From an uncultured Pseudomonadota bacterium (GTDB lineage: Bacteria; Myxococcota_A; Polyangia; Fen-1088), in NCBI GenBank assembly GCA_963847705.1, contig CAWKBC010000025.1, positions 1-64,000 on the forward strand: DNA of 64,000 bases, given 5' to 3'. This document shows positions 1,901 through 56,972 of this stretch, in pieces (the first letter of the stretch is position 1; every line of letters starts with the position of its first letter). The notes beneath the pieces were generated by a model that did not search any database, was not told the origin of the DNA, and worked only from the letters and a program-made list of their open reading frames with translations. Made by a program: the position numbers and the translations under genes.

Positions 1901-1978
1901 CTGGGCCGCCTGCCGGGCGGCACGTCGTCGGGCATGGTTCGCCTCGCTCACCCTCGCCTTTCGGCGACGCCCTCCTAG
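1901..1978 (+). repeat. CTAG-bounded two-hairpin dispersed repeat, copy A
   Basis: CTGG-GCCGCCTGCCGGGCGGC-ACGTCGTCGGGCATGGTTCG...TCGCCTTTCGGCGACGCCCTC-CTAG; aligns with copies at 6103, 14827, 52950, 56910. Confidence 0.85.
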
Positions 1979-3255
1979 AGAATCTGGCGCGCCGGCCCGG
2001 TCGCCGCCGGGCTCTGGTCCTTGGGATCGCGGATGGACGGGGCCGAGGTACCCTCTCCGGGCGTGCCGCCGTGCCCCGCCGGCGGGGTCGGGACCTGGGG
2101 CGGAGGGGGCGCAGGGGTCTCGCTTCCCGCCGTCGCCGGGTCGGCGAACTCGAACTTGTAGGTCGGGTCGAGCAGCTTCTGCAGCTTGGCGAAGGCCAGC
2201 TTCGACTTGTCCCGCCATTCGTTCTGCACGCCCAGCCGCTCCAGCATCAACAGGTTTTGCTCGTGGGTGCGCAGCGACTTCTCGAGCAGGATGCGGATGC
2301 GCTTGCGCAGCTCCTCGTAGTAGACCTCGCGCTTCTCCTGGTTGGCCTCCCCCTGCAGTTCGTCCGGGATGGGGGCATGGATGAAGGCGTCGTAGAACTC
2401 TTCATACAGTGACCCGATCTGGTAGCCGGAGGCGGCCGCCCACTGGGGGTTGCCGAGCTTGATCGTCTCGATGTACTGGCGCTGGGCCGCCAGCAGGAGG
2501 CGGGCCTTGTCCTCCATGTCGATCCCCATCTGCTTCTCCGGCAGCCGGAGCGGGATGGCGCGGAACCGCTCGTGCGGGATCTCCCCCAGGTGGTAACGCA
2601 CGAGGCCAAGGTAGAAGTCGGTGTCCAGCCGCTCCTCGCTGGCGATGCTGTTGAAAAAGTAGATCGCCGACTGGAACGTCCGCTCAGCCGTGTCCAGATC
2701 CTTCAGCTGGAACTGGGCGAACCCGCGCCGCCCCATCGCCTCGATCTTGTCGTCGGCGTTCAGGTCCTTGCGCTCGAGAATCTGGGCGAACGTCGTCGCC
2801 GAGGTGGGCCAGTTTCCCATCTCCGCGTAGCAGGCGCCGATCTGAAACTGGGCGTCCTTGGCGTCCGAGCTGTCGGCGTGCTCGGTGGCCAGCCGCTGGA
2901 ACCGGGCGATGGCGGTCTGCCAGTCCTTGGTCCCTTCGTACGCCAGGCCCGCGTTGTAGAGCGCCGCCTTGGTGTAGCGGGTGTCGGGAAACTCCTTGAG
3001 CAGCTGGTCGTAGTCGCGCGCGGCGTCGGCCGGACGCTTCGCCGACAGGGCGGCCCCTGCCCGCTCGAACAGCTCCGTCACGTCGTAGGTCTCGAGGTGG
3101 GTCCCCTCCGGCCCCTTCACCGCGGCGATCTTGATGGGGTCCATCTCGATCTCTTCCACCGGCCCCCCCGGCGGGACCACGGTCACATCGTTCTTCCCCT
3201 TGCCGGCGCAGGCCGCCAGCAGCATCAGCGGAACCACCCAGAGTCGTTTCGTCAT
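1975..3255 (-). CDS. TPR-repeat lipoprotein; C-terminal helical region resembles AgmU/GltD-type gliding TPR proteins
   Basis: Start MTKRLWVVPLMLLAAC (lipobox); TPR motifs (ALYNAGLAYE, AQFQIGACY); Pro-rich tail. The AgmU/GltD resemblance is recalled, not searched. Confidence 0.8.
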   Translation of the reverse strand: MTKRLWVVPLMLLAACAGKGKNDVTVVPPGGPVEEIEMDPIKIAAVKGPEGTHLETYDVTELFERAGAALSAKRPADAARDYDQLLKEFPDTRYTKAALYNAGLAYEGTKDWQTAIARFQRLATEHADSSDAKDAQFQIGACYAEMGNWPTSATTFAQILERKDLNADDKIEAMGRRGFAQFQLKDLDTAERTFQSAIYFFNSIASEERLDTDFYLGLVRYHLGEIPHERFRAIPLRLPEKQMGIDMEDKARLLLAAQRQYIETIKLGNPQWAAASGYQIGSLYEEFYDAFIHAPIPDELQGEANQEKREVYYEELRKRIRILLEKSLRTHEQNLLMLERLGVQNEWRDKSKLAFAKLQKLLDPTYKFEFADPATAGSETPAPPPPQVPTPPAGHGGTPGEGTSAPSIRDPKDQSPAATGPARQIL

Positions 3256-3402
3256 GTGAAGGTCCTTCTCGTCAGTCTTAAGGACAACGTCCCAGGGTGC
3301 CAGGTTCCCATCCGCAGGTTCCCATCCGCTCGGTCCTATCGGATGCTTGGGCCATTTCATTGACGGTTGATCCCAGGCAACCGGTCGGGCACCGTGGAGG
3401 GC

Positions 3403-3912
3403 ATGCCGGTTCGCGAGCTGATCCCCGCCGACGCCATCGCCAGGCGGATCGCCGAAATGGGGGCCGAGATCGACGCCCGACTGCCACCCGGACCGCTCAC
3501 GGTGGTGGGCGTCCTGCGGGGGGCCTTCGTCTTCATGGCCGACCTGGTCCGGGCCATCCCGCGGGAGCTGACCTGCGACTTTCTGGCCGTCCGGAGCTAC
3601 GGCGACGCGACCGTCTCCTCGGGCGTCGTCGAGATCACCAGCGATCTGGGCGCCCCGATCGCCGGCCGCCAGGTCCTGCTGGTCGAGGACATCGTCGACA
3701 CCGGTCTGACGCTCCGCTACCTGCTCGACCTCCTGAAGGCGCGGGGGCCGGCCGGCGTCCACGTCTGCGCGCTCCTGGCCAAGCCGTCATATAAGGAGGT
3801 GGCCCTCGACTTCGTGGGCTTCCCAGCGCCCGACGCCTTCGTGGTGGGCTACGGCCTCGACGCCCGTCAGCTCTACCGCAACCTGCCCGGGATCTGCGCG
3901 CTCGAGGAGTAG
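3403..3912 (+). CDS. hpt: Hypoxanthine phosphoribosyltransferase
   Basis: VGVLRGAFVFMADL, VRSYG, PRPP-binding VLLVEDIVDTGLTL, FVVGYGLD..YRNLP. Confidence 0.95.
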   Translation: MPVRELIPADAIARRIAEMGAEIDARLPPGPLTVVGVLRGAFVFMADLVRAIPRELTCDFLAVRSYGDATVSSGVVEITSDLGAPIAGRQVLLVEDIVDTGLTLRYLLDLLKARGPAGVHVCALLAKPSYKEVALDFVGFPAPDAFVVGYGLDARQLYRNLPGICALEE

Positions 3913-3940
3913 CGCCTTCCCCCTCGAGCCCCGAATCCCG

Positions 3941-4982
3941 CTACCTGTTCTTTTTGCGCCGGTCGAGCTCGTCCTTGAGCCGGGTCTTGATGCCGTTGTA
4001 GCGCTGCAGGAACTCGAAGTGCTTCTGCCGGAAGGCCTGCAGGTAGCGGCGCTCGTGCGCCTTCTGCTTGAGCGCCTCGCGGATCTCGCCCAGCGGGCCG
4101 ACCAGCTGTCCAGCCTCGCTGTAGCTGCCGACCAGGGTCATCACCCGTCCGGCGTCGATCAGCTTCACCTCGCCCGTGCGCCCGCTCCGGCCGGGCGGGC
4201 TGTAGAGGAGCGTGAGGACGTCCGGGGCGCTCGCCTTGACGGTGGTGACCACCATGCTCCCCGGCAGATCCGGCAGGTCCTCCTTGACGATGACGATTCT
4301 GGGGCCGCATCTGGGTCACGACGTCCAGCGCCTCGCCGCCCGAGAGCGCGGCGCGGAAATGCCACCCCTCCGCCGCCGTGAGCACCTTCTCCAGCTTTTC
4401 GAGCGCCTCCGGATCGTCGTCGACCAGGACGACGCTGACCGCCGCCGAGGTGGTCGCATCGTCGGAGGTCCGCCCCGAGGCGCGGTCCTCGTGGTCGAGC
4501 AGCTCGTGCGACACCTCGCGCAGGCGGCGCAGGAACTCCTCGTGCGTCTCGGCGACCTCCTCGAGCAGGCTGTTGCGATCGGCGGTCGCCTTGATCTCCC
4601 CGGCCGCCTCGATCACCCGTTCGCGCAGGTAAGGGACGACGTCCGGCTCCTTGAGCACGACGTCGGCCGCGCCCGCACGGAACGCCTTCACCGCCGTCTC
4701 GTACGACTTGCGGGCGGTCATGATCACCACCGACGTCAACGGCGACTTGTCGCGGGCGAACTGCAGGAGCTCGATCCCCCCGCCCGGGGTCGGCGTGTCG
4801 GCGTCGACCAGCGCGACGGCGTAAAACTTGTTCAGCAGCTGGTCGCGCGCCCGGACCGGATCGTGGGTCCCGGTGACGATCAAGCCAGCCTTGGTCAGCA
4901 GCCGGTCGAGCCCCTTGACGACCTGGTCATCGGCGTCGACGACCAGGACCTCTTGCCCGGCGGCGGCGGGTTGGTTGGCCAC
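3941..4982 (-). CDS. Response regulator with two receiver domains (one-base frameshift at ~4297)
   Basis: REC1: VLVVDAD...VALVD...KEP. REC2: VVLVDDD...ALSGGEAL. Removing one base in CAG-A-ATC restores RPQIVIVKEDLPDLPG and joins the 3941..4255 ORF. Confidence 0.8.
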
Positions 4983-5083
4983 GGTGCGGATGAACTTACC
5001 CCGGCGCTCGGTCAGGCATCAAGAGAACCTGGCGCGCGAGCTGGTACTCTTTGAGGAGTTTGGGCATCGCAAGGGCCTCGGAC

Positions 5084-6106
5084 ATGGACTCCTTCTTCGA
5101 CAGAGCGCTGCTGGCGGCGCGGCGCCTCGGCGCCTCCGACGTTCACCTGAAGCCTGGCTTGGCGCCAATTCTTCGGATCGCGGGCGAGCTGCGCACGCTG
5201 AGCGACGTTCCCCCCTTGTCGCGCGAGTTCCTGCACAGCCTGGGGCTCTCGCTGCTGAACGATCGGCGCCGAGAGACGCTGGAGCGGACCGGCGACGTGA
5301 TCGTGGCGCTGGCCACCAGCAATGGCGGACGGCAGCGCGCGCATCTTTTCCACCATCGCGGCGGACTCAGCCTGGCGCTTCGGTTGATCCCGCCCGAGGT
5401 CCCGGCGCTCGACACGCTCGGGCTCCCCGCCGAGGTGCGCGCGCTGACCGAGCCCGGCGCGGGGCTGGTGCTCGTGGCCGGCGGCCCCGGACAGGGGAAG
5501 ACCACCACGCTGGCAGCCCTGGTCGAGGACCTCACCGCGCGGCGCCCCTGCCGGGTGGTGACGATCGAAGAGCCGGTCGAATACCTGCTCAAGGATCGAC
5601 GGGGGTTGGTCGTCCAGCGGGAGGTCGGAACGGACGTCCCGTCGACCGCGGCGGCCCTGCGTTCGTTGAGCCGGCAGGACCTCGACGTTCTGCTCGTCGG
5701 CGATCTGACGGACCCGGCGGCCGCGCGGCTGGCCGTCGAGGCGGTGGAGACAGGCCGGCTGGTGCTGGCCGGCCTCCTGGCCGGAAACATCCCGCAGGTG
5801 GTCGAGCGGCTGACCGCCACGCCGGAGGACGACGCACCTCTGACGCGCGCGCGGATCGCTGCTAGCTTGCGGGGCATCATCGTTCAGCGTCTGGTTCCCG
5901 CCTCCGACGGCAAGCGCCGGGGGCCCGCCGGCACGTTGCTGCGGGTCGGACCCGAAGCTCGAGCGCAGCTCGCGGAGGGAGCCCTGGCGCAGGGAACGCC
6001 AGAGCTACCGGGGAGCCTGACCTTCGAGCCCCCGGCCGAGCCGCCCCGCAAGCGGCGGACCAGTGATCCGCGCGCGGCCGTCGAGGACGACACCCCGGGT
6101 GACTAG
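5084..6106 (+). CDS. PilT/PilU-family ATPase paralog, degenerate
   Basis: ASDVHL, Walker A GGPGQGKTTT, TIEEPVE, QREVGTD; Walker B and His box altered. Confidence 0.85.
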   Translation: MDSFFDRALLAARRLGASDVHLKPGLAPILRIAGELRTLSDVPPLSREFLHSLGLSLLNDRRRETLERTGDVIVALATSNGGRQRAHLFHHRGGLSLALRLIPPEVPALDTLGLPAEVRALTEPGAGLVLVAGGPGQGKTTTLAALVEDLTARRPCRVVTIEEPVEYLLKDRRGLVVQREVGTDVPSTAAALRSLSRQDLDVLLVGDLTDPAAARLAVEAVETGRLVLAGLLAGNIPQVVERLTATPEDDAPLTRARIAASLRGIIVQRLVPASDGKRRGPAGTLLRVGPEARAQLAEGALAQGTPELPGSLTFEPPAEPPRKRRTSDPRAAVEDDTPGD

Positions 6107-6180
6107 GCCGCCTCCGGGCGGCACGTCGTCGGGCATGGCTCGCTTCGCTCGCCGTTGCCTTTGCGGCAACGCCCTCCTAG
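6103..6180 (+). repeat. CTAG-bounded two-hairpin dispersed repeat, copy B
   Basis: CTAG-GCCGCCTCCGGGCGGC-ACGTCGTCGGGCATGGCTCG...CGTTGCCTTTGCGGCAACG-CCCTC-CTAG. Confidence 0.88.
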
Positions 6181-6194
6181 TCTTCGCTGCGCCC

Positions 6195-8846
6195 ATGTCC
6201 CCTTCCCTTTCGATCGACGCCCGTCGGGCCTTCCTCGACTACTTCGTGAAGCGCGGCCATCAGGAGGCGCCGAGCGCGTCGCTGGTCCCGCTCAACGATC
6301 CGACACTGCTCTTCACCAACGCCGGGATGAACCAGTTCAAGGACTTCTTCACCGGCAAGGCCAGGACGACCTTCTCGCGCGCCACCAGCTCGCAGAAGTG
6401 CGTGCGTGCCGGCGGCAAGCACAACGACCTGGAGAACGTCGGCCGCACGGCGCGCCACCAGACGTTCTTCGAGATGCTGGGGAACTTCTCCTTCGGCGAC
6501 TACTTCAAGCCCGACGCCATCGCCTTCGCGTATGAGCTCCTGACCAAGACCTACGCCATCAAGCCCGAGCGGCTGGTCTACACGGTTCACGAGTCGGACG
6601 ACGAGGCGCGCGTGCTCTGGAAGAAGATCGCGGGGGTCAGCGACGATCGCGTCATCGGCCTGGGCGACAAGGACAACTTCTGGGCCATGGGCGAGACCGG
6701 CCCCTGCGGCCCCTGCAGCGAGATCCACTATCTGCAGGGCGCCGAGATTCACTGCGCGGTCGAGACCGCCGGCGGCCACTGCCAGGGTCCCGCCTGTGAC
6801 TGCGACCGCTGGGTGGAGATCTGGAACCTGGTCTTCATGCAGTTCGAGCAGGTGGCCCCGGGCGATCGCCGCCCGCTGCCCAAGCCGTCGGTCGACACCG
6901 GCATGGGGCTCGAGCGCCTCTGCGCCGTGCTCCAGGGCGTGCGGTCCAACTACGAGACCGACCTCCTGCGTCCGCTCATCGATCGGGTGGCCGATCTCTC
7001 GAAGAAGCCGTTCGTCCCCGCCGACTACGAGGGGCAGAGCGTCTCGCTGCGGGCCATCGCCGACCACGCGCGGGCGGCGGCCTTCCTGATCGCCGACGGC
7101 GTCTTCCCCGACAAGACCGGCCGCGAGTACGTGCTGCGCCGGATCATGCGGCGGGCCGTCTATCACGGCTGGTTGCTGGGGATCAAAGAGCCGTTCCTCG
7201 ACGCGCTGGCGGCCGACGTCGTGACGAAGATGGGCGGCGTCTATCCCGAGCTGGTCGAGCGGCAGAGCCTCATCGCCAAGATCACGCGCGAGGAGGAGAC
7301 CCGGTTTCGCGAGACGCTCGAGCGCGGCGTGCGGCTGCTCGACGAGAAGGTCTTCGCCGCCGGCGGCGCCAAGCAGATCAACGGCGCGACGGCCTTCATG
7401 CTCTATGACACCTACGGGTTCCCGCTCGATCTGACGCGCGTGATCGCCGAGCAGCACCACTATGACCTCGACGAGGCCGGTTTCCAGACCGCGATGAACG
7501 AGCAACGCCACCGGAGCGACTTCCACGGCTCGGGCGAGGTCGCGGTGGCGGCCGTGTTCCAGCAGATCGCCGACCGCGTCGGGGCCACGAAGTTCCTCGG
7601 CTACGACCGGACCTCGGCTTCGTCCAAGGTCGTGGCCCTCCTCGCCGACGGAAAAGAGGTCGACGTCGTCGGCCCGTATTCCAAGGACGTCGCGGTGATC
7701 GTGGCCGAGACGCCGTTCTATGGCGAGCAGGGCGGGCAGATGGGCGACGCGGGGACGATCGCCTCGTCCAAGGCGCGCCTGGCCGTGCGGGACTCCAAGC
7801 GGCCGGTCTCCACGCTCTGGGTCCACTTCGCCGAGGTCGAGAGCGGCGAGCTGCGCGTCGGCGACGCCGTCGAGCTGACCGTCGACACCGAGCGGCGCGA
7901 CGACATCCGGCGCAACCACTCGGCGACGCACCTCCTGCACTGGGCGCTGCGCCACGTCCTCGGCACCCACGTGACCCAGAAGGGCTCGCTGGTGGCCCCC
8001 GATCGCCTGCGCTTCGACTTTTCGCACACTGCCCCATTGACGGACGAAGAGAAGCAGAAGGTCGAGGATCTGGTGAACGCGCGTGTCCGCAAGAACGTCG
8101 CCACCGACACCGCCGTGCTGGCGATCGCCGACGCCAAGCAGGCCGGCGCCATCGCCTTCTTCGGCGAGAAGTACGGCGACACGGTGCGCGTGGTGACGAT
8201 GGGCGAGTCGAAGGAGTTCTGCGGCGGCACCCACGTCGCGCGCACCGGCGACATCGCCTTCTTCAAGCTGACCGAGGAGACCGGCGTCGCCCAGGGCGTC
8301 AGGCGCGTCGAGGCCACCACCGGCGCCGGGGCCGTGGCCTTCGTCCGGAAGATGGAGAGTGAGCTGCTGGAGTCCGGGCGCCTTCTGCGCGCGGGCGAGT
8401 TCGAGGTCGCCGCGCGCATCACCAAGCTGCAGGCCGACCAGCGGGGGCTGGAAAAAGAGCTCGAGAAGCTGCGCCGCAAGCTCGCCTCCGGCGGCGGACG
8501 CGATCTGGCGGCCGAGGCGCGCGACGTCAACGGGGTGCGCGTGCTGGCGACCCGGGCCGACGTCGCCGATCCGAAGGCGCTGCGCGAGGTCGCCGATCAG
8601 CTGCGCGACAAGCTCGGCTCGGCCGTGATCGTCCTGGCCGGCGTCGAGGGGGACAAGATCGCGCTCGTCTCGATGGTCTCCCCCGATCTGGTCGGCAAGC
8701 ACCACGCCGGCAAGATCGTCGGCGAGGTGGCCAAGGCCGTGGGCGGCAAGGGGGGCGGTCGGCCCGACATGGCGCAGGGGGGGGGCTCCGATCCCACCGC
8801 GCTCGACGCGGCGTTGGCGAAGGTGTTCGATCTCGTCCGTGGCTGA
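6195..8846 (+). CDS. alaS: Alanine--tRNA ligase
   Basis: DPTLLFTNAGMNQFK, RHQTFFEMLGNFSFGDYFK, editing-site NHSATH and EFCGGTH, C-terminal GKGGGRPDMAQGGG. Confidence 0.99.
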   Translation: MSPSLSIDARRAFLDYFVKRGHQEAPSASLVPLNDPTLLFTNAGMNQFKDFFTGKARTTFSRATSSQKCVRAGGKHNDLENVGRTARHQTFFEMLGNFSFGDYFKPDAIAFAYELLTKTYAIKPERLVYTVHESDDEARVLWKKIAGVSDDRVIGLGDKDNFWAMGETGPCGPCSEIHYLQGAEIHCAVETAGGHCQGPACDCDRWVEIWNLVFMQFEQVAPGDRRPLPKPSVDTGMGLERLCAVLQGVRSNYETDLLRPLIDRVADLSKKPFVPADYEGQSVSLRAIADHARAAAFLIADGVFPDKTGREYVLRRIMRRAVYHGWLLGIKEPFLDALAADVVTKMGGVYPELVERQSLIAKITREEETRFRETLERGVRLLDEKVFAAGGAKQINGATAFMLYDTYGFPLDLTRVIAEQHHYDLDEAGFQTAMNEQRHRSDFHGSGEVAVAAVFQQIADRVGATKFLGYDRTSASSKVVALLADGKEVDVVGPYSKDVAVIVAETPFYGEQGGQMGDAGTIASSKARLAVRDSKRPVSTLWVHFAEVESGELRVGDAVELTVDTERRDDIRRNHSATHLLHWALRHVLGTHVTQKGSLVAPDRLRFDFSHTAPLTDEEKQKVEDLVNARVRKNVATDTAVLAIADAKQAGAIAFFGEKYGDTVRVVTMGESKEFCGGTHVARTGDIAFFKLTEETGVAQGVRRVEATTGAGAVAFVRKMESELLESGRLLRAGEFEVAARITKLQADQRGLEKELEKLRRKLASGGGRDLAAEARDVNGVRVLATRADVADPKALREVADQLRDKLGSAVIVLAGVEGDKIALVSMVSPDLVGKHHAGKIVGEVAKAVGGKGGGRPDMAQGGGSDPTALDAALAKVFDLVRG

Positions 8847-9834
8847 AAACCGGCTCGCGCAGACCTTCCAGCTCGACGCGACCGACGCTGGTGTCACGCT
8901 GGCCGCGGCGTTGCGCCGGCGCTTCACCGGGGAGAGCTGGAGTGACGTGCGCGCGCTCTGCACGACCGGCAAGGTGAGCCTCGACGGCGAGCGGGCGCTC
9001 GATCCCGCCGTCCGCGTGAGCGCCGGCCAGCGGATCGAGCTGCGACCGAACGCGCCGAAACCGCACACCGTCCCGGCGGGCTTCCGGATCGCGTTCGAGG
9101 ACGCTCACCTGGTGGTGATCGAGAAGCCGTCCGGCATCACCAGCGTCCCCTACGAGCGCAAGGAGACCGGCACCGCGCTCGATCTCATTCGCGCCAGCTG
9201 GAAGCGGGCCGGCAAGCGCGCCACGGTGACGCCGCTCTACACGGTGCACCGGATCGACAAGGACACCTCCGGCCTCCTGGCGTTCGCCAAGACCAAGCTG
9301 GCCGAGCGGGCGCTGCATGAGGTCTTCCAGCGCCACACCGCCGCCCGCGCCTACCTGGCCGTCGCCGAAGGGGACGTGACCGCGGCGCGCATCGAATCAC
9401 AGCTGGTCGCCGACCGCGGCGACGGCATCCGCGGCTCCGCCCGCCACCCCAACCCCAACGAAGGCCAGCTGGCCATCACCTACGTCGAACCGCTCAGGCA
9501 CTACGCGCGCAAATCGACCGGGCCGGCCGGGCGAGCGGGCACGATCGTCGCTACACTTTGTCGCGTGCGACTCGAGACGGGACGAACGCATCAGATCCGC
9601 ATCCACCTCTCCGAGCGGGGCCATCCCCTGGTCGGCGAGACGGTCTACATCCGCGATCTCTTGCGCGACGGCCGCCAGCCGCTCCCCGCGCCCCGCCTCA
9701 TGTTGCACGCCGCGTTGCTGGGCTTCCCGCACCCTGTGACCGGCGCGCCGATCAGGCTCGAGGCGACGCCGCCAGACGATTTCATGAAGGTGATCGAATC
9801 GTTGGGGGGCGCCCGTGGCGACTGCCGGATCTGA
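8839..9834 (+). CDS. RluA/RluD-family pseudouridine synthase with S4-like N-terminus
   Basis: VIEKPSG, VHRIDKDTSG (catalytic Asp), LETGRTHQIRIH, GHPLVGE, LMLHA. Confidence 0.93.
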   Translation: MAENRLAQTFQLDATDAGVTLAAALRRRFTGESWSDVRALCTTGKVSLDGERALDPAVRVSAGQRIELRPNAPKPHTVPAGFRIAFEDAHLVVIEKPSGITSVPYERKETGTALDLIRASWKRAGKRATVTPLYTVHRIDKDTSGLLAFAKTKLAERALHEVFQRHTAARAYLAVAEGDVTAARIESQLVADRGDGIRGSARHPNPNEGQLAITYVEPLRHYARKSTGPAGRAGTIVATLCRVRLETGRTHQIRIHLSERGHPLVGETVYIRDLLRDGRQPLPAPRLMLHAALLGFPHPVTGAPIRLEATPPDDFMKVIESLGGARGDCRI

Positions 9835-12327: not shown

Positions 12328-12333
12328 CCCGCT

Positions 12334-13654: not shown

Positions 13655-14830
13655 ATGGCACATACCCACCGGATCGCAACGGTCGCCGCGCTTCTTTTCG
13701 TTTCGTTGCCCGCCCGGGGCCAGTCCCCCTCTCTCAAGCCCGATTCGATCCGGCTCGTCGGACACCATTACGTGGCCGATCTCACCGACGGAGGGCACGC
13801 CGAGCTGACGCTGGATCCGCGGCTGCAGACCAGCACGGACGACGTTCTGCGCACCTTCCAGATCCCCTACGCGGGCGCCGTCGTCATCTCGATCCCCGAC
13901 GGCCGCGTGCTGGCGATGGTCGGACGCTCGGCCGCCGATCCGCGGCTCGGCCCGGCCGAGCTGGCGCTGCACCCGTGGGCCCCCTCAGCGTCGGTGTTCA
14001 AGGTCGTCTCCGCGACGGCGCTCGTCGAGAGCGGCGTTTCGGGCGCGACGCGGATCTGCTACCACGGCGGCGTCTCGTCGATCCTGCCCGACAACCTGAT
14101 CGACATCCCGGCCATCGACCGCAGCTGCGCCACGCTGGCGTACGGGATCGGCAAGTCGCAGAACGCCATCGTCGCCAAGCTGGTCACCACCCATCTGACC
14201 GCCGCCGATCTGGCCCGTGAAGGGCGCAGCTTCGGCTTCGGCGAGGCGATCCCGTTCGAGCTCGCGATCGAGCCGTCGCACCTCGATGTGCCGGCGAACA
14301 ACAAGCTGGAGATGGCGCGCGCCTCGGCCGGCTTCTGGCACTCGACGCTGTCGCCCATGCACGGCGCGCTCGTGGCCGCGACGATCGCCAACGCCGGCGA
14401 AATGCCCGCTCCCACCCTGATCGAGCGCGCCGTCGACGGAGAGGGCCAGCTCGAACAGCTGCCGGTCGCCGCGCCCCGTCACGTCGCCGCCAGCGCCGCC
14501 GCCTCCGAGGTGGGACGGATGATGGAGCTGACCACCCGGATCGGCACCGCCAAGGGGACGTTTCGCAACAAGCGCGGCCAGCGCTACCTGCCCATCGAGG
14601 TCGCCGGCAAGACGGGGACGCTGAACGCCGAAACCGACCACGGCCCCCTCGGCTACAGCTGGTTCGTCGGCTACGCGCCGGCCGATCACCCCACCATCGC
14701 TTTCGCCGTGGTGCTGGGGAATGCCCCCAACTGGCGCATCAAGGCCACCTACGTCGGCCGCCACATCGTGACCGAGTACCTGAACGAGAAGAACGAGCGC
14801 GCGGGGACCCACCTGGTTGCGGCGCGCTAG
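13655..14830 (+). CDS. Penicillin-binding protein, transpeptidase domain only
   Basis: SxxK (SVFK), SxN (SQN) and KTG motifs; N-terminal signal peptide. Confidence 0.9.
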   Translation: MAHTHRIATVAALLFVSLPARGQSPSLKPDSIRLVGHHYVADLTDGGHAELTLDPRLQTSTDDVLRTFQIPYAGAVVISIPDGRVLAMVGRSAADPRLGPAELALHPWAPSASVFKVVSATALVESGVSGATRICYHGGVSSILPDNLIDIPAIDRSCATLAYGIGKSQNAIVAKLVTTHLTAADLAREGRSFGFGEAIPFELAIEPSHLDVPANNKLEMARASAGFWHSTLSPMHGALVAATIANAGEMPAPTLIERAVDGEGQLEQLPVAAPRHVAASAAASEVGRMMELTTRIGTAKGTFRNKRGQRYLPIEVAGKTGTLNAETDHGPLGYSWFVGYAPADHPTIAFAVVLGNAPNWRIKATYVGRHIVTEYLNEKNERAGTHLVAAR

Positions 14831-14909
14831 GGTGCCTGCGGGCGACGCGCCGTCGGGCCACGTCGTCGTCCACCACGCTCACCATCGCCTTGCAGCGACG
14901 CCCTCCTGG
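14827..14909 (+). repeat. CTAG-bounded two-hairpin dispersed repeat, copy C (diverged)
   Basis: CTAG-GGTGCCTGCGGGCGAC...CCGTCGGGC...GCTCACCATCGCCTTGCAGCGACGCCCTC-CTGG. Confidence 0.75.
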
Positions 14910-43653: not shown

Positions 43654-45206
43654 GCGCTCGTTGGCTGTGTGGTCTAGCTCTGCTCGCAACCGCAGCCTTC
43701 GGTTGCACGAAGCTCAACCCAGGCCGCTGCGATCAGTCGAGTGACTGCAGCACGGGACATTGCAACCTCAAGAACAACCTATGCGAGGTTGACGGTGGGG
43801 TTGGTGGCCGCGGCGGCGTCGGCGGATTCGGAGGAGCGGCCGGCGCCAAGGGCACGGGCGGCACGCCTTTCGCCTGCCCCAATTCCACATGCACCGGGAA
43901 GACCCCCATCTGCGACGTGGATGCCGGGAGCTGCCGCGCTTGCAACAGGGCGACGATCGGCGCTTGCGGCAGCCCGGATGGCGGTTCGCCAGTCTGCGTG
44001 CCGGGCGACGCCGGCTCGCTGGCCGGAATGTGCGTTGGTTGCCTGGCGAACAGCGACTGCAAGACGCCCCAGGCCCCCATCTGCAACACCTCCACGGGAA
44101 CCTGCCAGGCATGCGCGGATTCCAACGCGTGCGCGACGAAGGATCCGACCAAGCCCGTCTGCGTGACGATCGCGACCGCCACCTTGGAGAAGGGGACGTG
44201 CGTCGGCTGCCTCGCGAACAGCGACTGCAGCGCCACCTCCCAGGCCCCCATCTGCAACACCTCCACGGGAACCTGCCAGGCATGCGCGGATTCGAGCGCG
44301 TGCGCGACGAAGGATCCAAACAAGCCCGTCTGCGTGACGACCGCGACCACCACTTTGATGAAGGGGACGTGCGTGGTCTGCGTAAGCAACAGCGACTGCA
44401 CCACGCCGACTGCGCCGATTTGCAGCCAGTCCTCGAACACCTGCGTTCCCTGCGGCCCGGACTCGGACTGCACCGGAGGCCCGGGGGTCTGCATGACCGA
44501 CGGCCACTGTGCGACCGACTCCGAGTCGATCTACGTTCAGAACAACACGACGAGCTGCACGACCACTGCTTCCAGTTCGGGCGGGACCAAGACACAGCCG
44601 TTCTGCTCGATGGAGCCGGTGGCAACCGCCCTCGCCCCGGGACGCGATCTGGTCGTCGTCAATGGAACCAGCGGGACGATCACCGGGGGAAGCTGGACCT
44701 ACGCCAACCAGGTCGGCGCGCAGCTCTCGATCGTCGGCAAACAGAACCCCACGATCGGAAGCGTTTCGATTCCCGCCTTCGGCATGCAGTCGGGGACGGT
44801 CAACATTCGCTCAGTGACTTTCCAGTCCTTGTCGTCGATGGGAATCAGCGCCTCCGGCGGCACACTGGATCTCGAATACGTCACAGTGACCAGCTGTGGG
44901 GGCGGCGGAATTCTATTGAGCAATGCCGCTTTCGACATCGAGAACACGACCGTCAAGAACAACGGTCCGAGCTCCGACTTGACCTGGGGGGGGATTAAAG
45001 TTCAATCGTTGCCGGCCAGTGGCCCGGCCAAGTTCAACCTGGTCACGATCACCGGAAACACCCCATCAGGAATCTCTTGCGCTTCCGGCGCGGCACCGAT
45101 GGGCACCGGGGTGTTGGCTTCGGGGAATGGTTCTGGCGACATCAGCGGGACCTGCAACATCACGGCGTGCACGCCGGCGACTGCGACGTGTGGGTCCCAG
45201 CAATGA
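43650..45206 (+). CDS. Cys-rich repeat lipoprotein with C-terminal beta-helix
   Basis: GTG start, lipobox AFGC, CVGCLANSDC..PIC repeats, GGGILL..FDIENT..GGI beta-helix-like region. Confidence 0.8.
   Translation: MSARWLCGLALLATAAFGCTKLNPGRCDQSSDCSTGHCNLKNNLCEVDGGVGGRGGVGGFGGAAGAKGTGGTPFACPNSTCTGKTPICDVDAGSCRACNRATIGACGSPDGGSPVCVPGDAGSLAGMCVGCLANSDCKTPQAPICNTSTGTCQACADSNACATKDPTKPVCVTIATATLEKGTCVGCLANSDCSATSQAPICNTSTGTCQACADSSACATKDPNKPVCVTTATTTLMKGTCVVCVSNSDCTTPTAPICSQSSNTCVPCGPDSDCTGGPGVCMTDGHCATDSESIYVQNNTTSCTTTASSSGGTKTQPFCSMEPVATALAPGRDLVVVNGTSGTITGGSWTYANQVGAQLSIVGKQNPTIGSVSIPAFGMQSGTVNIRSVTFQSLSSMGISASGGTLDLEYVTVTSCGGGGILLSNAAFDIENTTVKNNGPSSDLTWGGIKVQSLPASGPAKFNLVTITGNTPSGISCASGAAPMGTGVLASGNGSGDISGTCNITACTPATATCGSQQ
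44030..44400 (+). repeat. Intragenic tandem duplication, ~168-171 bp x 2.2
   Basis: CCCAGGCCCCCATCTGCAACACCTCCACGGGAACCTGCCAGGCATGCGCGGATTC occurs twice identically. Confidence 0.9.
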
Positions 45207-51100: not shown

Positions 51101-52953
51101 TGCCCTTCGACGAGATCCCTGACCTCTTCCTGCGTGTCGGCCAGGGAAAGGCGGAGGTCGGCGATCCGGAAGGAGCGATCGTCGCCTACCGCGAGGCCGC
51201 GGCGCTGGCCCCCAGCTCACGCGCGGCCCGCGAGGCACTGGCCCCGCTCCTGGCGGCCAAGGAGGATTGGGGCGGCTGGATCGCCGCGCGTGAGGCCCTG
51301 GCCGCGCTCGTGGCGGAGCCCGAGAGGGCCGCCCTCTGGGAGGAGATCGGCGACGCCTGCGCGGCGCGCCTCGGCGACCGGGCGCGCGCGGAAGCCGCCT
51401 ACCGCCGGGCGTTCGAGGCCGAGCCCGCGCGGCGAGCGCCGATCGAGAAGCTGCTGGCGATCTACCAGGAAGAAGGCAGGTTCGAGCCGGCGGTCGAGAT
51501 GCTGGCGGCTCTGGCCAAGGTGGAGACGTCACCGGCGGAGCGCGCGGCGCTGCGGCGAGAGGCGGCGCGGCTGCTGCTCGACCAGGTGAACCGCCCGCTG
51601 GAGGCGATCGAGATGCTGGAGCGCGCCCTCGACGACGCCCCCGACATGCTCGACGCCTTCGACGAGCAGAGTCGCCTGCGCGAGGACGCCATGGACTGGA
51701 CCGGCCTGGTCGCCAGCCACCGCGCGATGCTCGAGCGCCTGCCACCGGATGCCCCGCGGCCGCTCCGGCTGCGCCTGTGGACCCGGATCGCCACCGTGGC
51801 GATGCGCCAGCTGCGCGACCGCAAGCTGGCCATGACGGCGTACGAGGCGGCGGTGGCGCTCGATCCCGGCGACCACGCCAAGCAGGAGATGCTGGCTCAC
51901 GTCTACCAGCTGGTGGGGCCCGACGCGCGCGAGCGCGCCATCGCCGCGCATCAGAAGCTGATCGCCCACGATCCCCACCGGACCGATTCCTACCTGGCGC
52001 TGGCGAAGCTGTACGGTGAGACGGGCGAGACCGACAAGCGCTGGTGCGTCGCCGCCACGCTCTGGTACCTCAAGAAGAACACCCCCGCGCTCGACGAGCT
52101 GTTCCACCGCCACCGGCCCCCGCGCGCCCGCGCCGCCCTGCGCCCCTTCACCGACGAGACCTGGCGCCAGGTGCGGCACCCCGACGAGGACCTGCGGATC
52201 GGCGGCTTGTTCGCCGTCGCCTCGCCGTTCCTGGCGGTGTCGGCCGCCTACGACCCGGCGCACGTCGGGCTCAAGAAACGCGGACAGGTCGACCTCCAGC
52301 AGGACGCCAGCCTCTGGGCGCGCACGCTGGTCGAGCTGGCCGGAACGCTGGCCCTGCCGCTCCCCGACGTCTACGCGATGGACGGCGAGGCCGGCCAGAC
52401 CACCCTGGTCAATGTCCGTCACCGCAATGGCCCGCGGCCGACGCTGCTGCTCGGGCCCCCGACGATGCGGCGGAACAGCTTCGATCTGGTCTTCGATCTG
52501 GCGCCCCATTTTTCCTTCTTGCGCCCCGAACGGTTCCCCAAGGTGGCGCTGCGGACGCCGCCCATCCTGCAGGGCGTGCTGGGGGTGCTGCGTGCGCTCG
52601 GCCGACCGAACGGCGGGCCGCCGCTCGAGGGTGAAGCGGGTCAGCTCAAGGCCCACCTCGCACGCACGATGCCTCCCGCGGCGCTGGCCCGGCTCGCCGA
52701 GGCCAGCCGCGATCTCGGCGCCGAGGGGGAGCCGGTGGACATCGAGCGGTGGATCGCCGCCACCGATCTGTCCGCCGCGCGCCTCGCGCTCTCCCTGACC
52801 GGGGAGCTGGCGGCGGCGTTCCGGGTGATCTCCAGCGAGCCGATCCCGCTGTCGACGATCCCCGCCCACCGGCGGATGGCCGACCTGGTGGCCTTCTCCG
52901 TCAGCGACGACTACTTCGCGGTCCGGCGCCAGCTCGGCCTGGCGATCGCCTAG
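48139..52953 (+). CDS. Degenerate SIR2-like domain fused to giant TPR solenoid (AgmK-like C-terminus)
   Basis: VLVTGLGCS..GAPSW, VVTTAFD, LLHLCG, LIGFRPTDPD; >1000 aa of TPR repeats; ends DLVAFSVSDDYFAVRRQLGL. Confidence 0.85.
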   Translation: MVEIPDSLVERLKARQVVLVTGLGCSELAGAPSWKTFIDSLADRPVFSDVRAQIAGLIAAGRLGDALALIRDLLPPAQVEEAIERAFADGAPLPDSVRQAADFPWRAVVTTAFDDQWARALAAATTRRDPLRVLVGIDASARAQFGGPDTPLLHLCGRRALPKSLCLGPADARLRLLPSAGIAWLEQLRRRRSLVLIGFRPTDPDLVWLSSWLAAHPAQGGAGPHYLFLDLSAEDDPDREAMVWELRTGLTILPCLEGTGEAMARLAMIAGSIGTQLPSSDSDVDLAALLDRWARNPDDPEPRQILARAEGALRDEERWDRLVELLLRRLDLQDEPRQQIAALGEVARLFRDRLDAPERALKAEIVMLRLLPTDDDLWERLRADARAGGAWGALSTEARWVAEMAGATPAATRIWREIARVEREELDRPDDALAALEQALLATPGHREARAEQVALLRALGRWGELVAALKAAAAETDEPEQAIAGLLEAAEILEGPANDPVGAAQAYEATLTIAPEREQAAAALERLYAREKRWADLAALLERRADRLPASEASALRHRRVDILVDHLDALGQAAEQLEALAAEGDRGALLKLEQIYRRAERHDDYLQILRRLADAAGSQPERITALRRLAAEGDALPDGAEQAADALDEILRLDPRDSDAFEALTRLCRARGRFAALAEALSRRLEVTETAEAKRELLVSLAQICETELGDPERALDAYVAARSAGDRREEIHEATARLAERLGRWSVCAEALGAWAEASTEPELRAEVLVEAAGVFVEHLHDSPAAEAALERVAALAPEHPRALAILGRVREEGGGYEQAVALYERAASQEPDRSEQSALLTRAAVVLMEHGQDEDRAADLLVRALAADPGHRDANLRLVDVYTRREQWADVEALLDRELESARTPGETERDTERVAALQTQLARAALALGNAEKALACLETAHRLRPELLPMLRTFADLRYGRGEWKEAIVLYESLLALHREALPFDEIPDLFLRVGQGKAEVGDPEGAIVAYREAAALAPSSRAAREALAPLLAAKEDWGGWIAAREALAALVAEPERAALWEEIGDACAARLGDRARAEAAYRRAFEAEPARRAPIEKLLAIYQEEGRFEPAVEMLAALAKVETSPAERAALRREAARLLLDQVNRPLEAIEMLERALDDAPDMLDAFDEQSRLREDAMDWTGLVASHRAMLERLPPDAPRPLRLRLWTRIATVAMRQLRDRKLAMTAYEAAVALDPGDHAKQEMLAHVYQLVGPDARERAIAAHQKLIAHDPHRTDSYLALAKLYGETGETDKRWCVAATLWYLKKNTPALDELFHRHRPPRARAALRPFTDETWRQVRHPDEDLRIGGLFAVASPFLAVSAAYDPAHVGLKKRGQVDLQQDASLWARTLVELAGTLALPLPDVYAMDGEAGQTTLVNVRHRNGPRPTLLLGPPTMRRNSFDLVFDLAPHFSFLRPERFPKVALRTPPILQGVLGVLRALGRPNGGPPLEGEAGQLKAHLARTMPPAALARLAEASRDLGAEGEPVDIERWIAATDLSAARLALSLTGELAAAFRVISSEPIPLSTIPAHRRMADLVAFSVSDDYFAVRRQLGLAIA

Positions 52954-53028
52954 GAGGGGGCGTCGCCGTCAGGCGACGGTGAGCACCGCGAACCATGCCC
53001 GACGACGGCGCGCCCGAAGGCGCCCTAG
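52950..53028 (-). repeat. CTAG-bounded two-hairpin dispersed repeat, copy D
   Basis: Reverse complement CTAG-GGCGCCTTCGGGCGC-GCCGTCGTCGGGCATGGTTCG..GCTCACCGTCGCCTGACGGCGACG-CCCCCTC-CTAG; fills the whole gap between two convergent TAG stops. Confidence 0.88.
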
Positions 53029-53984
53029 CCCGCGGAGGTCGTCACGCCCGACGCGTCGGGAGGTCGAAGCCGGAAGCCGGTCCGCGCCAGGACGCCCAGA
53101 CCGGCCAACGTCACGGGGACGACCTGCACCAGGTGATAGAGGAGCGCGAAGGCGACCGCGGTCGGCTTCCCCACCTTGGCCAGCACCAGGACGACGGCGG
53201 CGGCGCTCTCGAACGTCCCGGCGTTGGCCGGAAGGGCGGGGACCGCCATGGCCAGGTTGATGCCCAGGAGGACGACGATCGCCAGCACCGGCGCCAGATG
53301 CAGACCGATGGCGCGGGCGCAGAGGATGATCATGGCGATCTCGCACGACCAGGCCGCGAGCGACGCCCCCAGCGTTTCCGCCGTCGCCTCGGAGCTCCGG
53401 AGCACGGTCATCCCGGGCGCGATCCGCGCCGCGGCCGCTCGAAGGAATCCAGGGATTCGCCCGCTTCGACCGTCCGCCATCCCCCGCAGGATGACCAGCA
53501 CCGCCAGCGCCACGCCCAGGGCGGCCGCCCCGGTTCCCAGCACCCACGACTGCGCCGGGGCAAAGCAGCTGGCAGAGAGCGCGAGCGCCGCCAGGACCAC
53601 GACCTCCAGCAGCTTCTCGACGACCGCGATCGCCATCGCGGCCGATTTCCCGATCCCCGCGCAGCTCTCCAGCATGTAGAGACGGGCCACGTCGCCCGCC
53701 CGCAGCGGAAACACGTTGTTGATGGCCGAGGAGCTCAAGACGGCGCGAACCAGGCATCCGAGCGACGCGCGGGCGGGCGCGAGCAGGACCTGCAACCGCG
53801 CCGCCCGGATGGTCAACATCAGGCCGTTGATGGCCACGACCACCACCAGAAGCTCGAGCTTGGCCCTTCGGAGCGTCCCCCAGACCTCGCGCCAGCTCAC
53901 ATGATGAGCGACGAAGCCGACGGCGGCGACCCCCACCAACCCGCGGGCCACCACCGCGAGCGCCCGACGCCGAGGCGTCGGCAT
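53025..53984 (-). CDS. Lysylphosphatidylglycerol-synthase TM (flippase-like) protein
   Basis: IRAARLQVLL, NNVFPLRAGDVAR, VEKLLE, PALPANAGTFE, AFALLYH. Confidence 0.88.
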   Translation of the reverse strand: MPTPRRRALAVVARGLVGVAAVGFVAHHVSWREVWGTLRRAKLELLVVVVAINGLMLTIRAARLQVLLAPARASLGCLVRAVLSSSAINNVFPLRAGDVARLYMLESCAGIGKSAAMAIAVVEKLLEVVVLAALALSASCFAPAQSWVLGTGAAALGVALAVLVILRGMADGRSGRIPGFLRAAAARIAPGMTVLRSSEATAETLGASLAAWSCEIAMIILCARAIGLHLAPVLAIVVLLGINLAMAVPALPANAGTFESAAAVVLVLAKVGKPTAVAFALLYHLVQVVPVTLAGLGVLARTGFRLRPPDASGVTTSAG

Positions 53985-53988
53985 GGCC

Positions 53989-54897
53989 CTACCCGACCTG
54001 GTGGGACCGGCCACGCAGAGCCGCGGCCGCGGCCGCGCCCGTCGTGGCTGCAGGCGCCTCGACCGGCACCAGACGCTCGATCCGCGCGGCCTCCGTCTGT
54101 CGCGCCTGGGCGGAGAGCAGCGCCGGATCGCCCAGCTGTTTCATCGTCCAGACGATCCGGGCGATCGCCGTCCCGGTGTTGAGCAGCGCCATGATGAACA
54201 GGGCGACCGCCGTGACCGCGTAGGTCGGGTGAGGCACGAAACCCTCGACGTGGTGTCCCACCAGCGGCGAGAAGGCCAGGGCGATCGAGAGCAGTGTGAT
54301 CCGGTCGGCCCGCTGCATGAGCCCTTCCGCGCCGGTCAGGCCGAGCGTCTCGGCGCGCGACCGCGCGTAGCTGATGACGAAGGACATGACCAGCGCCACC
54401 AGCGCCGCGTACATGACCACCGTCCCCGCGTAGTAGACGACGCAACCGCCGAACATGAGGCCGTCGGCCACCCGGTCGATGGTCGAATCGAAGAACGCCC
54501 CGCGCGCGCTGGTCGACCGCAAGGCGCGCGCGACCTCGCCATCCATCACGTCGAGCGCCCCCGTCGAGATCAACAGCACCGAGCCGAGGGCGAAGTGACC
54601 GGCACCGACCGCGATCGCCGTGGCGAACGCCAGGAGCAGGCCCAGCACGGTGAAGAAGCTGGCCGACTGTCCGCTGCGGATGGCCAGGCGGCAGATGGGC
54701 TTGGTCAGCCAGTAAAAGTACCCGACCAGCAGCGAGGGGAGCAGGCGACGTCCAGCTCCGCGCGGGCGCAGCGGCGGCAAGGTCGACAGGCGGAGCGCCA
54801 CCCGCACCGCGTAGGTGAACAGCGCGAGCGAGAAGAAGGAGGCGAATCCCACCAGGAACACGACATCCATAACCTTCGGCGATAGGTGAAGGCTCAC
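53989..54897 (-). CDS. CDP-alcohol phosphatidyltransferase
   Basis: DVMDGEVAR..GAFFDSTIDRVAD, SYARSRAE, GLMQRADR; AAGGAG RBS before the GTG. Confidence 0.92.
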   Translation of the reverse strand: MSLHLSPKVMDVVFLVGFASFFSLALFTYAVRVALRLSTLPPLRPRGAGRRLLPSLLVGYFYWLTKPICRLAIRSGQSASFFTVLGLLLAFATAIAVGAGHFALGSVLLISTGALDVMDGEVARALRSTSARGAFFDSTIDRVADGLMFGGCVVYYAGTVVMYAALVALVMSFVISYARSRAETLGLTGAEGLMQRADRITLLSIALAFSPLVGHHVEGFVPHPTYAVTAVALFIMALLNTGTAIARIVWTMKQLGDPALLSAQARQTEAARIERLVPVEAPAATTGAAAAAALRGRSHQVG

Positions 54898-55061
54898 GGC
54901 GAGGTCTCCTTTGGCGGTGGGATGTCGTCGACCGACCACAATCGTTCCGCGATCACGACCCGCAACAACTTCAGATAGGCCACGAGGGTCAGCTGACCAA
55001 GGCGCCCAAGAAACACGAGCTGGCTTTGCAACGTCGGTGTCCTACTGACTGAATTAACCAT
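54894..55061 (-). CDS. Small hypothetical protein (55 aa)
   Basis: MVNSVSRTPTLQSQLVFLGRLGQLTLVAYLKLLRVV...; its TGA overlaps the next GTG (GTGA). Confidence 0.4.
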   Translation of the reverse strand: MVNSVSRTPTLQSQLVFLGRLGQLTLVAYLKLLRVVIAERLWSVDDIPPPKETSP

Positions 55062-55219
55062 TTGAGCCACTGCCGCCAGATGCAAGCTCAGCACCGTGGA
55101 GCGTGCCATTCGAAGCGGTCCCGGAGATCACTGGGAATTGGCCCAAGATCAGCCGTGAGACAGGTCGCACAGCCGTCAGGTTTTGGACGAATCGTCCAAT
55201 GGCTGATGACTCGGCCGCG

Positions 55220-55480
55220 CCAGCGCCGCCCATCCAGAGCAGGCCAGTCAAGAGCGAGGTCAGCACCAGGGCGGTGCTCCGGATGTTGCCGAAGAGGATC
55301 GCCACCAGCAGCGCGACGCCGGCGAAGGCCACCCCGGTCGCCAGCGGCCCGGCGCGCGAAATCGACCGCAGCATCGCCGCGAACATCGAGGAATTGCCGG
55401 CGGCGCTCACCAGCTCGCCACCTGGCAGTTGAACAGGACCAGGCACACGCCCAGCAGCAGGAGCGCGTTCCGAGCCCGCG
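55220..55480 (-). pseudogene. Internal fragment of an MMPL/RND-family transporter
   Basis: AAGNSSMFAAMLRSISRAGPLATGVAFAGVALLVAILFGNIRSTALVLTSLLTGLLWMGG resembles MMPL TM7-8; the rest of the gene is absent. Confidence 0.6.
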
Positions 55481-55483
55481 CCG

Positions 55484-56677
55484 TCACGCGGACCGCGCCG
55501 TCGACTGAGGCTCGCTCCCGCCGCCGCGGAGGAGCCGGGCGTAAAGCGCGAGCACCTGATCGGTGACGACCGGCCAGTCGAAGCGCGCCGCCGTGCGACG
55601 TCCGGCCTCCGCGCAGCGCCGCCGCGCGGCCTCGTCAGTCAGCAGCCAGTTCGCGCAGCGGGCGAGCTCGGTCGATGCGGGGTCGGCCGCGACGTCCACC
55701 AGATGGCCCTCCACACCGTCCCGCATGACGTTGCGGAAACCGGGCGTGTCGGCCGCCACGACTGCGCACCCGGCGGCCATCGCCTCGAGCACGATGATCC
55801 CGAAGGTCCCGCCGACGGCCGGGCAGAGCAGCAGATCGCCCGAGGCATAATATGATCGGCGCTCCGGACCGGGGACGAACCCCACGAAGTGGACGTCGTC
55901 GCGGAGGTCGGAGGGGACCATCGCCTCGTACCTCGGCCGCAGGGGACCGTCGCCCACGACGATCAGGCGGGCGTCGGTCCCCAGGCGCCTCACCCCGACC
56001 CACGCGCGGATCACGTGGTCGACGCCGTTGCGGGGATCGAATCGCCCGACATGCAGGACGTTCAAGCGGCCGTCGTCGAACTCCGGACGGCGGCGGCCCG
56101 AAGAGAACGCCGCCACGTCCACCCCGTTGGGAATGATCTGCCAGGGCGCCCGAAAATAGCGGCGGACCCCGGTGAGCGCCGTGTCGGAGACGCCGACCGC
56201 CGCATGGAGCCGATCGACGTAGGGCTGCAACCGCCGCCTGACGAGCGCGAGCAGCAGGCTGCGCTCGAACGCGCTGTGAAAGGTCCCGACGTTGACGGCG
56301 TCGGAGCAGCGCAACGCCAAGAGGGGAAGCGTCGGCATCAGCGGCGAGTGGACGTGGACCACGTCGAACCTCTCCGCGCGGATCACCTCGCGCATTCGGG
56401 TCGAGAGATCGCTGCCGGTCGACGTCCGCGCGATCGAGCCGCCCGAGAGCACGGGAACGGAGACGCCGATCCGGATGACGCTGTTTTCCTGGTCCGCGCG
56501 CCGCGCGGCCTCCGCGGAGAGCACCTCCCTCTCGGAGGCCAGGTTGTCCCTCACCACCGGTGTCAGGATTCGAACGTCGTGACCGACACGCCGGGCCGCC
56601 CGCGCGAAGTGGTGGACGTGCTCCTGAATCCCACCCAGCGTCGGGTAGTAGTATTCGGTGACAATCCCAATTCGCAT
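55484..56677 (-). CDS. GT4 glycosyltransferase, PimA-like
   Basis: MRIGIVTEYYYPTLGGIQEH, VHVHSP, GTFH, IPNGVD, GRFDPRNG, FGIIVLEAMAAG. Confidence 0.9.
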   Translation of the reverse strand: MRIGIVTEYYYPTLGGIQEHVHHFARAARRVGHDVRILTPVVRDNLASEREVLSAEAARRADQENSVIRIGVSVPVLSGGSIARTSTGSDLSTRMREVIRAERFDVVHVHSPLMPTLPLLALRCSDAVNVGTFHSAFERSLLLALVRRRLQPYVDRLHAAVGVSDTALTGVRRYFRAPWQIIPNGVDVAAFSSGRRRPEFDDGRLNVLHVGRFDPRNGVDHVIRAWVGVRRLGTDARLIVVGDGPLRPRYEAMVPSDLRDDVHFVGFVPGPERRSYYASGDLLLCPAVGGTFGIIVLEAMAAGCAVVAADTPGFRNVMRDGVEGHLVDVAADPASTELARCANWLLTDEAARRRCAEAGRRTAARFDWPVVTDQVLALYARLLRGGGSEPQSTARSA

Positions 56678-56909
56678 TTGAGCGGCGCCCCGCGCAAAGA
56701 GGGATGGGGCCGCCTCGGCGCCGGCGCAAGGCAAAGACCACTTTGGGGCCACAGCTCGAGCATCCAATAACCTCGATCGCCCGGCCCGGTGGCGACCGCT
56801 TCGGCGATCACCAGGCTGTCGCCCGGCAGCTCGCCGAGGCGGCCTTCTCGCTGAGCGTCCAGCGCCAGGAGACCGAGGCTGGTGACCGGAACAAAGAGAG
56901 ACGCGCCGG

Positions 56910-56972
56910 CTCGAGGGGGAGCATCGCCCAGGAAAGTCATGACCCGACGGCGTGGCGCCCGAAGGCGCCTAG
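56910..56972 (-). repeat. CTAG-bounded dispersed repeat, copy E (short, diverged)
   Basis: Reverse complement CTAG-GCGCCTTCGGGCGCC-ACGCCGTCGGGTCATG...GGCGATGCTCCCCCTC. Confidence 0.65.

Follow-up and report, generated by a model that had tools for sequence, protein, structure and literature searches.

Repetitive extragenic palindromes (REPs) of the GTAG type frequently provide TAG stops to flanking open reading frames (ORFs), according to the study that also defines TIRtrons (PMC3733652), and arrays and excision are described for REPINs (PMC3116915). The enzyme TnpA-REP requires CT only and builds tandem BIMEs in vitro (PMC3333891). Insertion sequences (IS) of the IS200/IS605 group have hairpins at their ends, with a tetranucleotide of the target on one side and a final tetranucleotide of their own on the other, and favour the lagging-strand template (PMC6006769). 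Here, we describe a small gene-less element found in a 64,000-nucleotide stretch (the window) from an uncultured bacterium that GTDB places in Myxococcota_A, Polyangia, Fen-1088 (assembly GCA_963847705.1, contig CAWKBC010000025.1, positions 1 to 64,000 of the forward strand). The element is real and recently mobile. It is bounded by two CTAG tetranucleotides, which do not represent a duplicated target: the TAG comes from the element, as seen at one well-resolved site with which two others agree.

Architecture and range of the element

The unit is 74 bases long, holds no genes and has a fixed length with precise ends. In 196 distinct copies CTAG is followed by hairpin 1, a linker of 11 bases, a spacer that is either short or long, a central hairpin, hairpin 2, five bases and a second CTAG, with no inverted ends beyond CTAGG. 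A sequence-only reading of the window had described hairpins 1 and 2 correctly and had missed the central one. Read on the minus strand, hairpin 1 has a (C)G..A loop in 187 of the 196 copies and hairpin 2 a G..A loop in 170; the central loop is GNA (GAA, GCA, GGA or GTA) in 183 and is bordered by tandem GA/GA mismatches. In single-stranded DNA, both GNA mini-hairpins and sheared GA pairs are stable. As judged from these loop sequences, the G..A rule suits one strand only, the minus strand as the element was first drawn, which is probably the active one; the direction of G-T wobbles picks no strand (18 versus 12). The compensatory pair noted earlier in hairpin 2 is confirmed: of 196 copies, 92 have T-A and 88 have C-G. 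One pair per outer hairpin covaries in a 60-row alignment (30 versus 28 in hairpin 2; 53/5/2 in hairpin 1, with three pair types at one stem position), whose rows were picked by a pattern demanding near-intact stems, so that its 98.9% pairing is inflated. The central GA-mismatch hairpin also occurs in other lineages with the rest of the element missing (L618, at G093:C419:2520-2594, and L068), which suggests a shared module.

The source genome (G000; 6.1 Mb, 69% GC) is a draft bin, 85% complete with 6% contamination, in which an iterated profile converges on 58 matches, or about 52 loci once arrays are merged. Two of its contigs of about 19 kb (C36 and C37) are about 89% identical lengthwise and possibly represent two strains in the bin. 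The exact right end is present in 19 of 26 genomes of the genus, whose members are myxobacteria-like soil bacteria, with a maximum of 69 in G007 (reversed control, 0-2); G007 holds over 90 copies, a young burst. In a class-wide draw searched with a covariance model, four of five other genomes of the genus matched, none of the 11 other genomes of the family did, and one genome of another family matched weakly, with only the central hairpin in common. Records whose titles name a group are mostly Polyangia, Myxococcales or Myxococcota, many being just 'uncultured proteobacterium'. Viral contigs gave no match to the right half, and none of their 30 linker matches was an element. Rfam gave no match to the element, only four tRNAs being found in the window, and the literature searched, which left paywalled papers and supplements outside, contained no description of the family. 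With further copies, empty sites (below) and no Rfam match, the earlier proposal of an undescribed non-autonomous mobile family is supported.

Precise insertion, element-borne stops and the window copies

The element is gained or lost precisely at orthologous sites. Upstream of alaS, 7 of 26 genomes are filled and many others have a single CTAG or TTAG at the same spot; on an alaS tree of 25 genomes, some nodes of which are weak, filled and empty states alternate (G017 is filled and its sister G034 empty; G015 is filled in a separate clade). Of 37 orthologous junctions found in the source genome for 158 foreign copies, 5 are clean single-tetranucleotide sites, as are 5 of 23 junctions in a second survey (103 foreign copies queried; some sites repeated), the remainder in both being also filled or diverged. 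One further site (C34:88927) was uninformative. The same gap can be filled in opposite orientations (L076 versus C21:64712). Of 196 copies, 25 are preceded by a tandem junction at which head-to-tail neighbours have one CTAG in common, and one-and-a-half copies are also found. Loop sequences are uniform in some arrays and mixed in others, pointing to local amplification as well as re-insertion. The target is no longer than four bases: flanks beyond the tetramer carry no motif (at most 0.19 bits per position) and only codon periodicity.

The origin of the second CTAG is best resolved at C27:261946, where the closest relative (G001, 96% identical) ends its gene with C-TGA and both G000 and G035 read CTAG-element-CTGA. 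Among the ten closest relatives, six are empty with TGA, two are empty with a TAG preceded by T or G, and two bear the element with TAG; G032 retains a truncated element with TAG. At C27:665138 the source genome likewise reads CTAG..CTGA, and 12 of 21 readable orthologues have a CTGA stop. Locus L424, filled versus a bare tetramer in G003, shows the same pattern, and at L148 an empty CGAG corresponds to a filled CGAG..CTTG. All six TCAG-left copies (one maybe an internal duplication) use the right CTAG as a stop, compared with 50 of 93 CTAG-left copies. Among 34 single copies with a non-CTAG left end, the right end repeats the left tetramer in 1 and is CTAG in 25. The IS630- or IS5-type duplication listed earlier is not supported, given these alleles and the lack of inverted ends.

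The link to stop codons is strong but not absolute, and independent of the transcribed strand. Of 135 scorable copies, 95 (70%) touch a stop and 40 touch none, and 514 of 1245 (41%) non-coding CTAG in the source genome are stops (p 1e-10, the two counts having been made by different methods). In the source genome, 18 of 59 copies have a called gene ending at neither side, and 4 of the 18 lie between divergent genes; genes arrive from either side (13 versus 16, both sides 9), and a single copy of the 59 lies inside a called gene. An excess of stops at the right end (55 versus 30) was not used because the metagenome copies were chosen by exact right end; the source genome gives 16 versus 13. The claim that the element always sits at a TAG stop is thus true in the window and not family-wide, and the proposal that it persists at stop codons without gene breakage is now stronger than when first made, since the element supplies TAG itself. 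The bias may arise because CTAG is rare (observed/expected 0.25 genome-wide in the source genome) and often a stop, and because selection would purge insertions within genes.

The window holds five related copies at the positions first reported, and all align:
1901 to 1978, plus strand: copy A, full length, left end decayed to CTGG, 94 bits; its right CTAG is the stop of a minus-strand TPR-type gene (ORF end 1975, minus)
6103 to 6180, plus strand: copy B, full length, CTAG at both ends, 101 bits; lies between a PilT-like ATPase gene, whose stop is the left CTAG (ORF end 6106, plus), and alaS
6107 to 6122, minus strand: hairpin 1 of copy B, 6-bp stem, minus-strand loop (C)G..A
6137 to 6153, minus strand: central hairpin of copy B in the predicted minus-strand fold; 3 bp, tandem GA/GA mismatch, 2 bp, GNA triloop
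6154 to 6170, minus strand: hairpin 2 of copy B, minus-strand loop G..A
6177 to 6180, minus strand: terminal CTAG of copy B, element-borne to judge by other loci, which would provide the TAG of a gene that reaches it on the minus strand
14827 to 14909, plus strand: copy C, older, long linker, right end decayed to CTGG, 45 bits; a transpeptidase-domain gene stops at its left CTAG (ORF end 14830, plus)
52950 to 53028, minus strand: copy D, full length, CTAG at both ends, 76 bits; spans the stops of convergent TPR and flippase-like genes (ORF ends 52953, plus, and 53025, minus)
56910 to 56972, minus strand: copy E, worn remnant of hairpin 1 and linker with a single CTAG, 23 bits, E 0.0025; a histidine kinase gene stops at this CTAG (ORF end 56969, minus)

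Scored with a covariance model derived from 60 copies outside the source genome, A to D are clear (E-values 4e-8 to 1e-20, 45-101 bits; next window match 14 bits); E is a worn half, missing from the final profile search. The end states were as noted earlier, and the six stop codons are real, a gene caller having also kept the six ORFs. Of 19 CTAG in the window, 7 lie in the five copies. Relatives of site A have the CTAG stop without the element. G001 also has copy C, which is missing in the seven other relatives whose sequence was read; in contigs from four soil sequencing runs, site C gave one element-free join, with 24 other letters, which says nothing on excision. A copy in G017 sits at the same TPR stop as copy D in the opposite orientation.

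Several other features were seen. A second, larger repeat family of about 80 bases (multi-hairpin, intergenic, in tandem arrays and mostly not CTAG-bounded) has 200 matches genome-wide, one of them in the window (1195-1281, plus strand) beside a four-tRNA cluster (1281-1679, minus strand). A direct repeat of about 170 bases with 88% identity lies within window positions 44030-44400.

Mode of movement and search for a mobiliser

We favour, with a probability of about 0.6, movement in trans by an HUH/Y1-type enzyme through single-strand cut-and-join at CT. The minus strand would fold into three hairpins and be excised as a single-stranded circle whose junction re-forms CTAG; joining would follow at a target CT, with C-TAG preferred and C-TGA tolerated. 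Insertion would thus fall mostly at CTAG, the element's own terminal CTAG handing TAG to any gene whose stop is hit, and arrays may form by insertion beside the element's own end or by rolling amplification. We infer which strand is active, the circular form and the type of enzyme; the junctions fit equally a plus-strand cut after the whole tetramer or a minus-strand cut at CT.

A number of observations weigh against this account. No gene lies between element ends among 132 right ends from metagenomes (of which 11 looked odd, being truncated or worn) or in 20 half-matches from G007 and G035, and none is flanked by the element's ends at 30 Y1, 30 IS110 and 28 Y2 loci of the genus. No autonomous partner with the same ends was found; all genomes searched are drafts, which makes this absence weak. 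The copies show no replication-strand bias (24 versus 25 of 49, by local GC skew), unlike IS608 and ISDra2. Fold energies just modestly beat shuffles (DNA z -1.3 to -1.6). At C27:665138 the closest relative has TTAG, not CTGA. CTAG is less frequent at the left end than at the right (51/89 versus 73/91, p 0.001), and among non-stop ends this asymmetry shrinks (67/114 versus 35/50, p 0.22); the idle, non-stop end plainly decays at sites A and C, which explains much of it. Finally, counts of the RAYT-like cassette described next do not follow those of the element (26 genomes, Spearman -0.09), and G007, despite 69 exact element right ends, shows no sign of the cassette or of its end motif.

A Pfam search of the source genome found no Y1 and no Y2 gene. 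RAYT-like genes, below the Pfam threshold, surfaced by genome self-comparison, and in a motif screen of the called genes the HUH type was represented by their three copies only. The gene, P0001, encodes 232 residues with an HGH motif and a conserved tyrosine; it matches the NCBIfam REP-associated tyrosine transposase below the cut-off, and a low-confidence structure model (pLDDT 52) best matches TnpA-REP 4ER8, then IS200 transposases. It lies in a cassette with 19-20-base inverted ends and often 6-7-base direct repeats adjoining CTAG, with as many as 42 matches in a single genome of the genus. The cassettes and their probable footprints (CTAG, 7 bases, CTGAG, the same 7 bases, CTAG) in the source genome are:
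C47:43536-44814: RAYT-like cassette with inverted ends (L263-L265, with the next two)
C29:169385-170559: RAYT-like cassette with inverted ends
C2:31360-32330: RAYT-like cassette with inverted ends
C27:564644: probable cassette footprint
C27:832395: probable cassette footprint
C32:431192: probable cassette footprint

Of 62 cassette loci, 4 have the cassette within or adjoining the small element; on C47 it is inserted into the element's left end, and one source-genome copy is a hybrid of the two. In the source genome the CTGAG footprint, flanked by direct repeats, is present at three free sites and within three of the small elements, and one convergent gap holds a footprint in G000, the cassette in G034 and the small element in G001. 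The cassette end was not seen in five element-bearing genomes, and empty cassette sites were mostly not recovered. P0001 as the moving enzyme is a tentative idea, with the odds against it. That cassette and element form one two-part system, a missing link from REP to IS200, is rather doubtful. The cassette would land 5-7 bases inside the element's CTAG end to give a temporary autonomous unit (G000 C47; partly G035 and G034), which would drive bursts of precise, stop-writing insertions and then leave a short footprint behind (three footprint-bearing source-genome copies). Such a system would have a four-base target and built-in stop repair.

Other candidates were considered. An IS200-type gene in G035 has hairpins only generically similar to those of the element, and the source genome has no IS200-type gene; that gene (L154:1010-1990, G035:C3) is a tnpA with typical end hairpins, and the stretch just before it resembles, by eye, what we take to be the 5' part of a group II intron. 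Clustering of 1163 ORFs flanking copies gave no recurrent mobility gene among the 25 largest clusters. GIY-YIG genes were rejected: they occur in five of five genomes, and the four small-gene loci checked lack the element's motif. Two CTAG-bounded IS in the source genome have ends unlike the element's, one of 532 amino acids (C29:323729-325442 and C30:98294-100007) and one with a split frame (C27:214887-215897 and a C32 copy); from motifs, we presume them to be IS1182-like and IS630-like. A short element with IS1182-like ends was seen at C17:212600 and also in G035.

Among other explanations, the junctions are fitted as well as by a Y1 enzyme by an IS110-family recombinase that moves a non-autonomous module via a circle, its CT core dinucleotide repeated at both junctions. 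The change from CT-GA to CT-AG...CT-GA exactly fits a two-base CT core, CT is present on both sides on the minus strand, and this route agrees with the lack of strand bias. Of 26 genomes, 19 have IS110 genes. A target chosen by a guide RNA should leave a longer motif in the flanks, and the IS110 core does not account for the lack of one. None of 30 IS110 loci carries the element's ends, and the source genome has just a fragment, so this reading is unlikely, although a gene-less module moved by an IS110 transposase is on record (PMC12288879). A rolling-circle, IS91/Helitron-like Y2 element would take hairpin and terminal CTAG as its stop signal, with read-through giving the arrays and partial copies. 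In Helitrons a hairpin near the end serves as stop signal, and here hairpin 2 ends 5 bases ahead of the terminal CTAG; arrays and one-and-a-half copies exist, and Y2 genes occur in 13 of 26 genomes, G007 and G035 included. Their 28 loci, however, have unrelated ends with no significant match to the element, and none was found in the source genome (85% complete), with no match in control genomes either, which leaves this explanation quite improbable.

An ordinary miniature inverted-repeat transposable element (MITE) moved by a DDE transposase that targets CTAG (IS630 or IS1182-like), with duplication of TA or CTAG, would account for CTAG at both ends of most copies, and the two CTAG-bounded IS above share the genome. 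It is largely refuted, and we hold it to be highly improbable: nothing past CTAGG is inverted at the ends, neither IS has ends like these, and TGA sites gain TAG on one side only (CTGA to CTAG..CTGA, and similarly CGAG to CGAG..CTTG). A selected 3'-UTR RNA structure, a stabiliser or terminator spread by gene conversion and not selfish, draws on the excess of copies at stops, on RNA folds (z -0.7 to -2.8; copy B minus strand -2.25) and on loops of which many are GNRA (95 of 118 four-base loops) or UNCG. Such a role, raised in the sequence-only reading, is very improbable, as the element lies in both orientations behind genes, many copies adjoin no gene end and some lie between divergent genes; most orthologues lack it, one gap can be filled either way round, and the consensus has no U-tract.

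Comparison with known systems

CTAG-bounded repeats at stops are usually filed as MITEs with target duplication, and the alleles described here assign one CTAG to the element, which can switch a TGA stop to TAG with the protein intact. This offers a testable route for the survival of gene-less elements in dense genomes and for stop-codon exchange. With precise ends, young bursts and many empty alleles, the element is a clean substrate for REP-like movement in vivo once its enzyme is found.

Like REP, BIME and REPIN sequences with RAYTs, which are extragenic hairpin units led by an xTAG tetranucleotide and often give TAG stops (PMC3733652), the element is extragenic, lies near 3' ends and forms tandem arrays. 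CTAG precedes hairpin 1 and, on the other strand, CTAG-GAGG precedes hairpin 2; the two CTAG-led hairpins face each other and are unlike in sequence, a layout that may compare with the paired hairpins on opposite strands of REPs. REPs also form tandem arrays, and CT specificity of the enzyme would fit (PMC3733652, PMC3116915, PMC3333891). The junctions are compatible, by sequence, with TnpA-REP-type CT cleavage. Unlike a REP, the element has a tag, CTAG, that is common to neighbours and present once at empty sites, and it combines two unlike hairpins and a central GA-mismatch hairpin in a fixed 74-base unit with precise ends. No REPtron was found: P0001 has its own inverted ends, adjoins the element in 4 of 62 loci and is missing from G007. 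The Y1 cassette resembles TIRtrons with TIRYT-like genes (PMC3733652). It occurs in the same genomes as the element and in CTAG or stop-codon surroundings, and is joined to it in 4 of 62 loci; unlike the element it has inverted ends and direct repeats, and it inserts into the element and shares no ends with it.

Mycobacterial MIRUs are also short mobile repeats at gene boundaries that spare the neighbouring gene, but they sit at start codons with a coupled mini-ORF, whereas the element sits at CTAG or CTGA in either orientation and keeps no ORF (PMC12548453). From MITEs the element differs in having only CTAGG mirrored, no terminal inverted repeats matching a resident IS and no target duplication, and from IS110 systems in the lack of an extended guide-specified target and of a cognate IS110 with the same donor ends. 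Gene-less derivatives of IS200/IS605 are called PATEs. The element has hairpins near both ends, no inverted ends and no duplication, as IS200/IS605 ends do, with a target tetranucleotide on one side and an element-borne one on the other (PMC6006769). Unlike theirs, its target and terminal tetranucleotides are the same palindrome, insertion shows no lagging-strand bias, and no cognate TnpA with the same ends was found (the G035 gene has hairpins of generic similarity only, and the source genome has none). Inspection of the alignment by eye, with the pairing rule known for such elements, recognised no guide tetranucleotide 5' of the hairpins. The element works like a REP/BIME or an IS200-end element and departs from each in defining features, and it therefore appears to be a variant of that kind.

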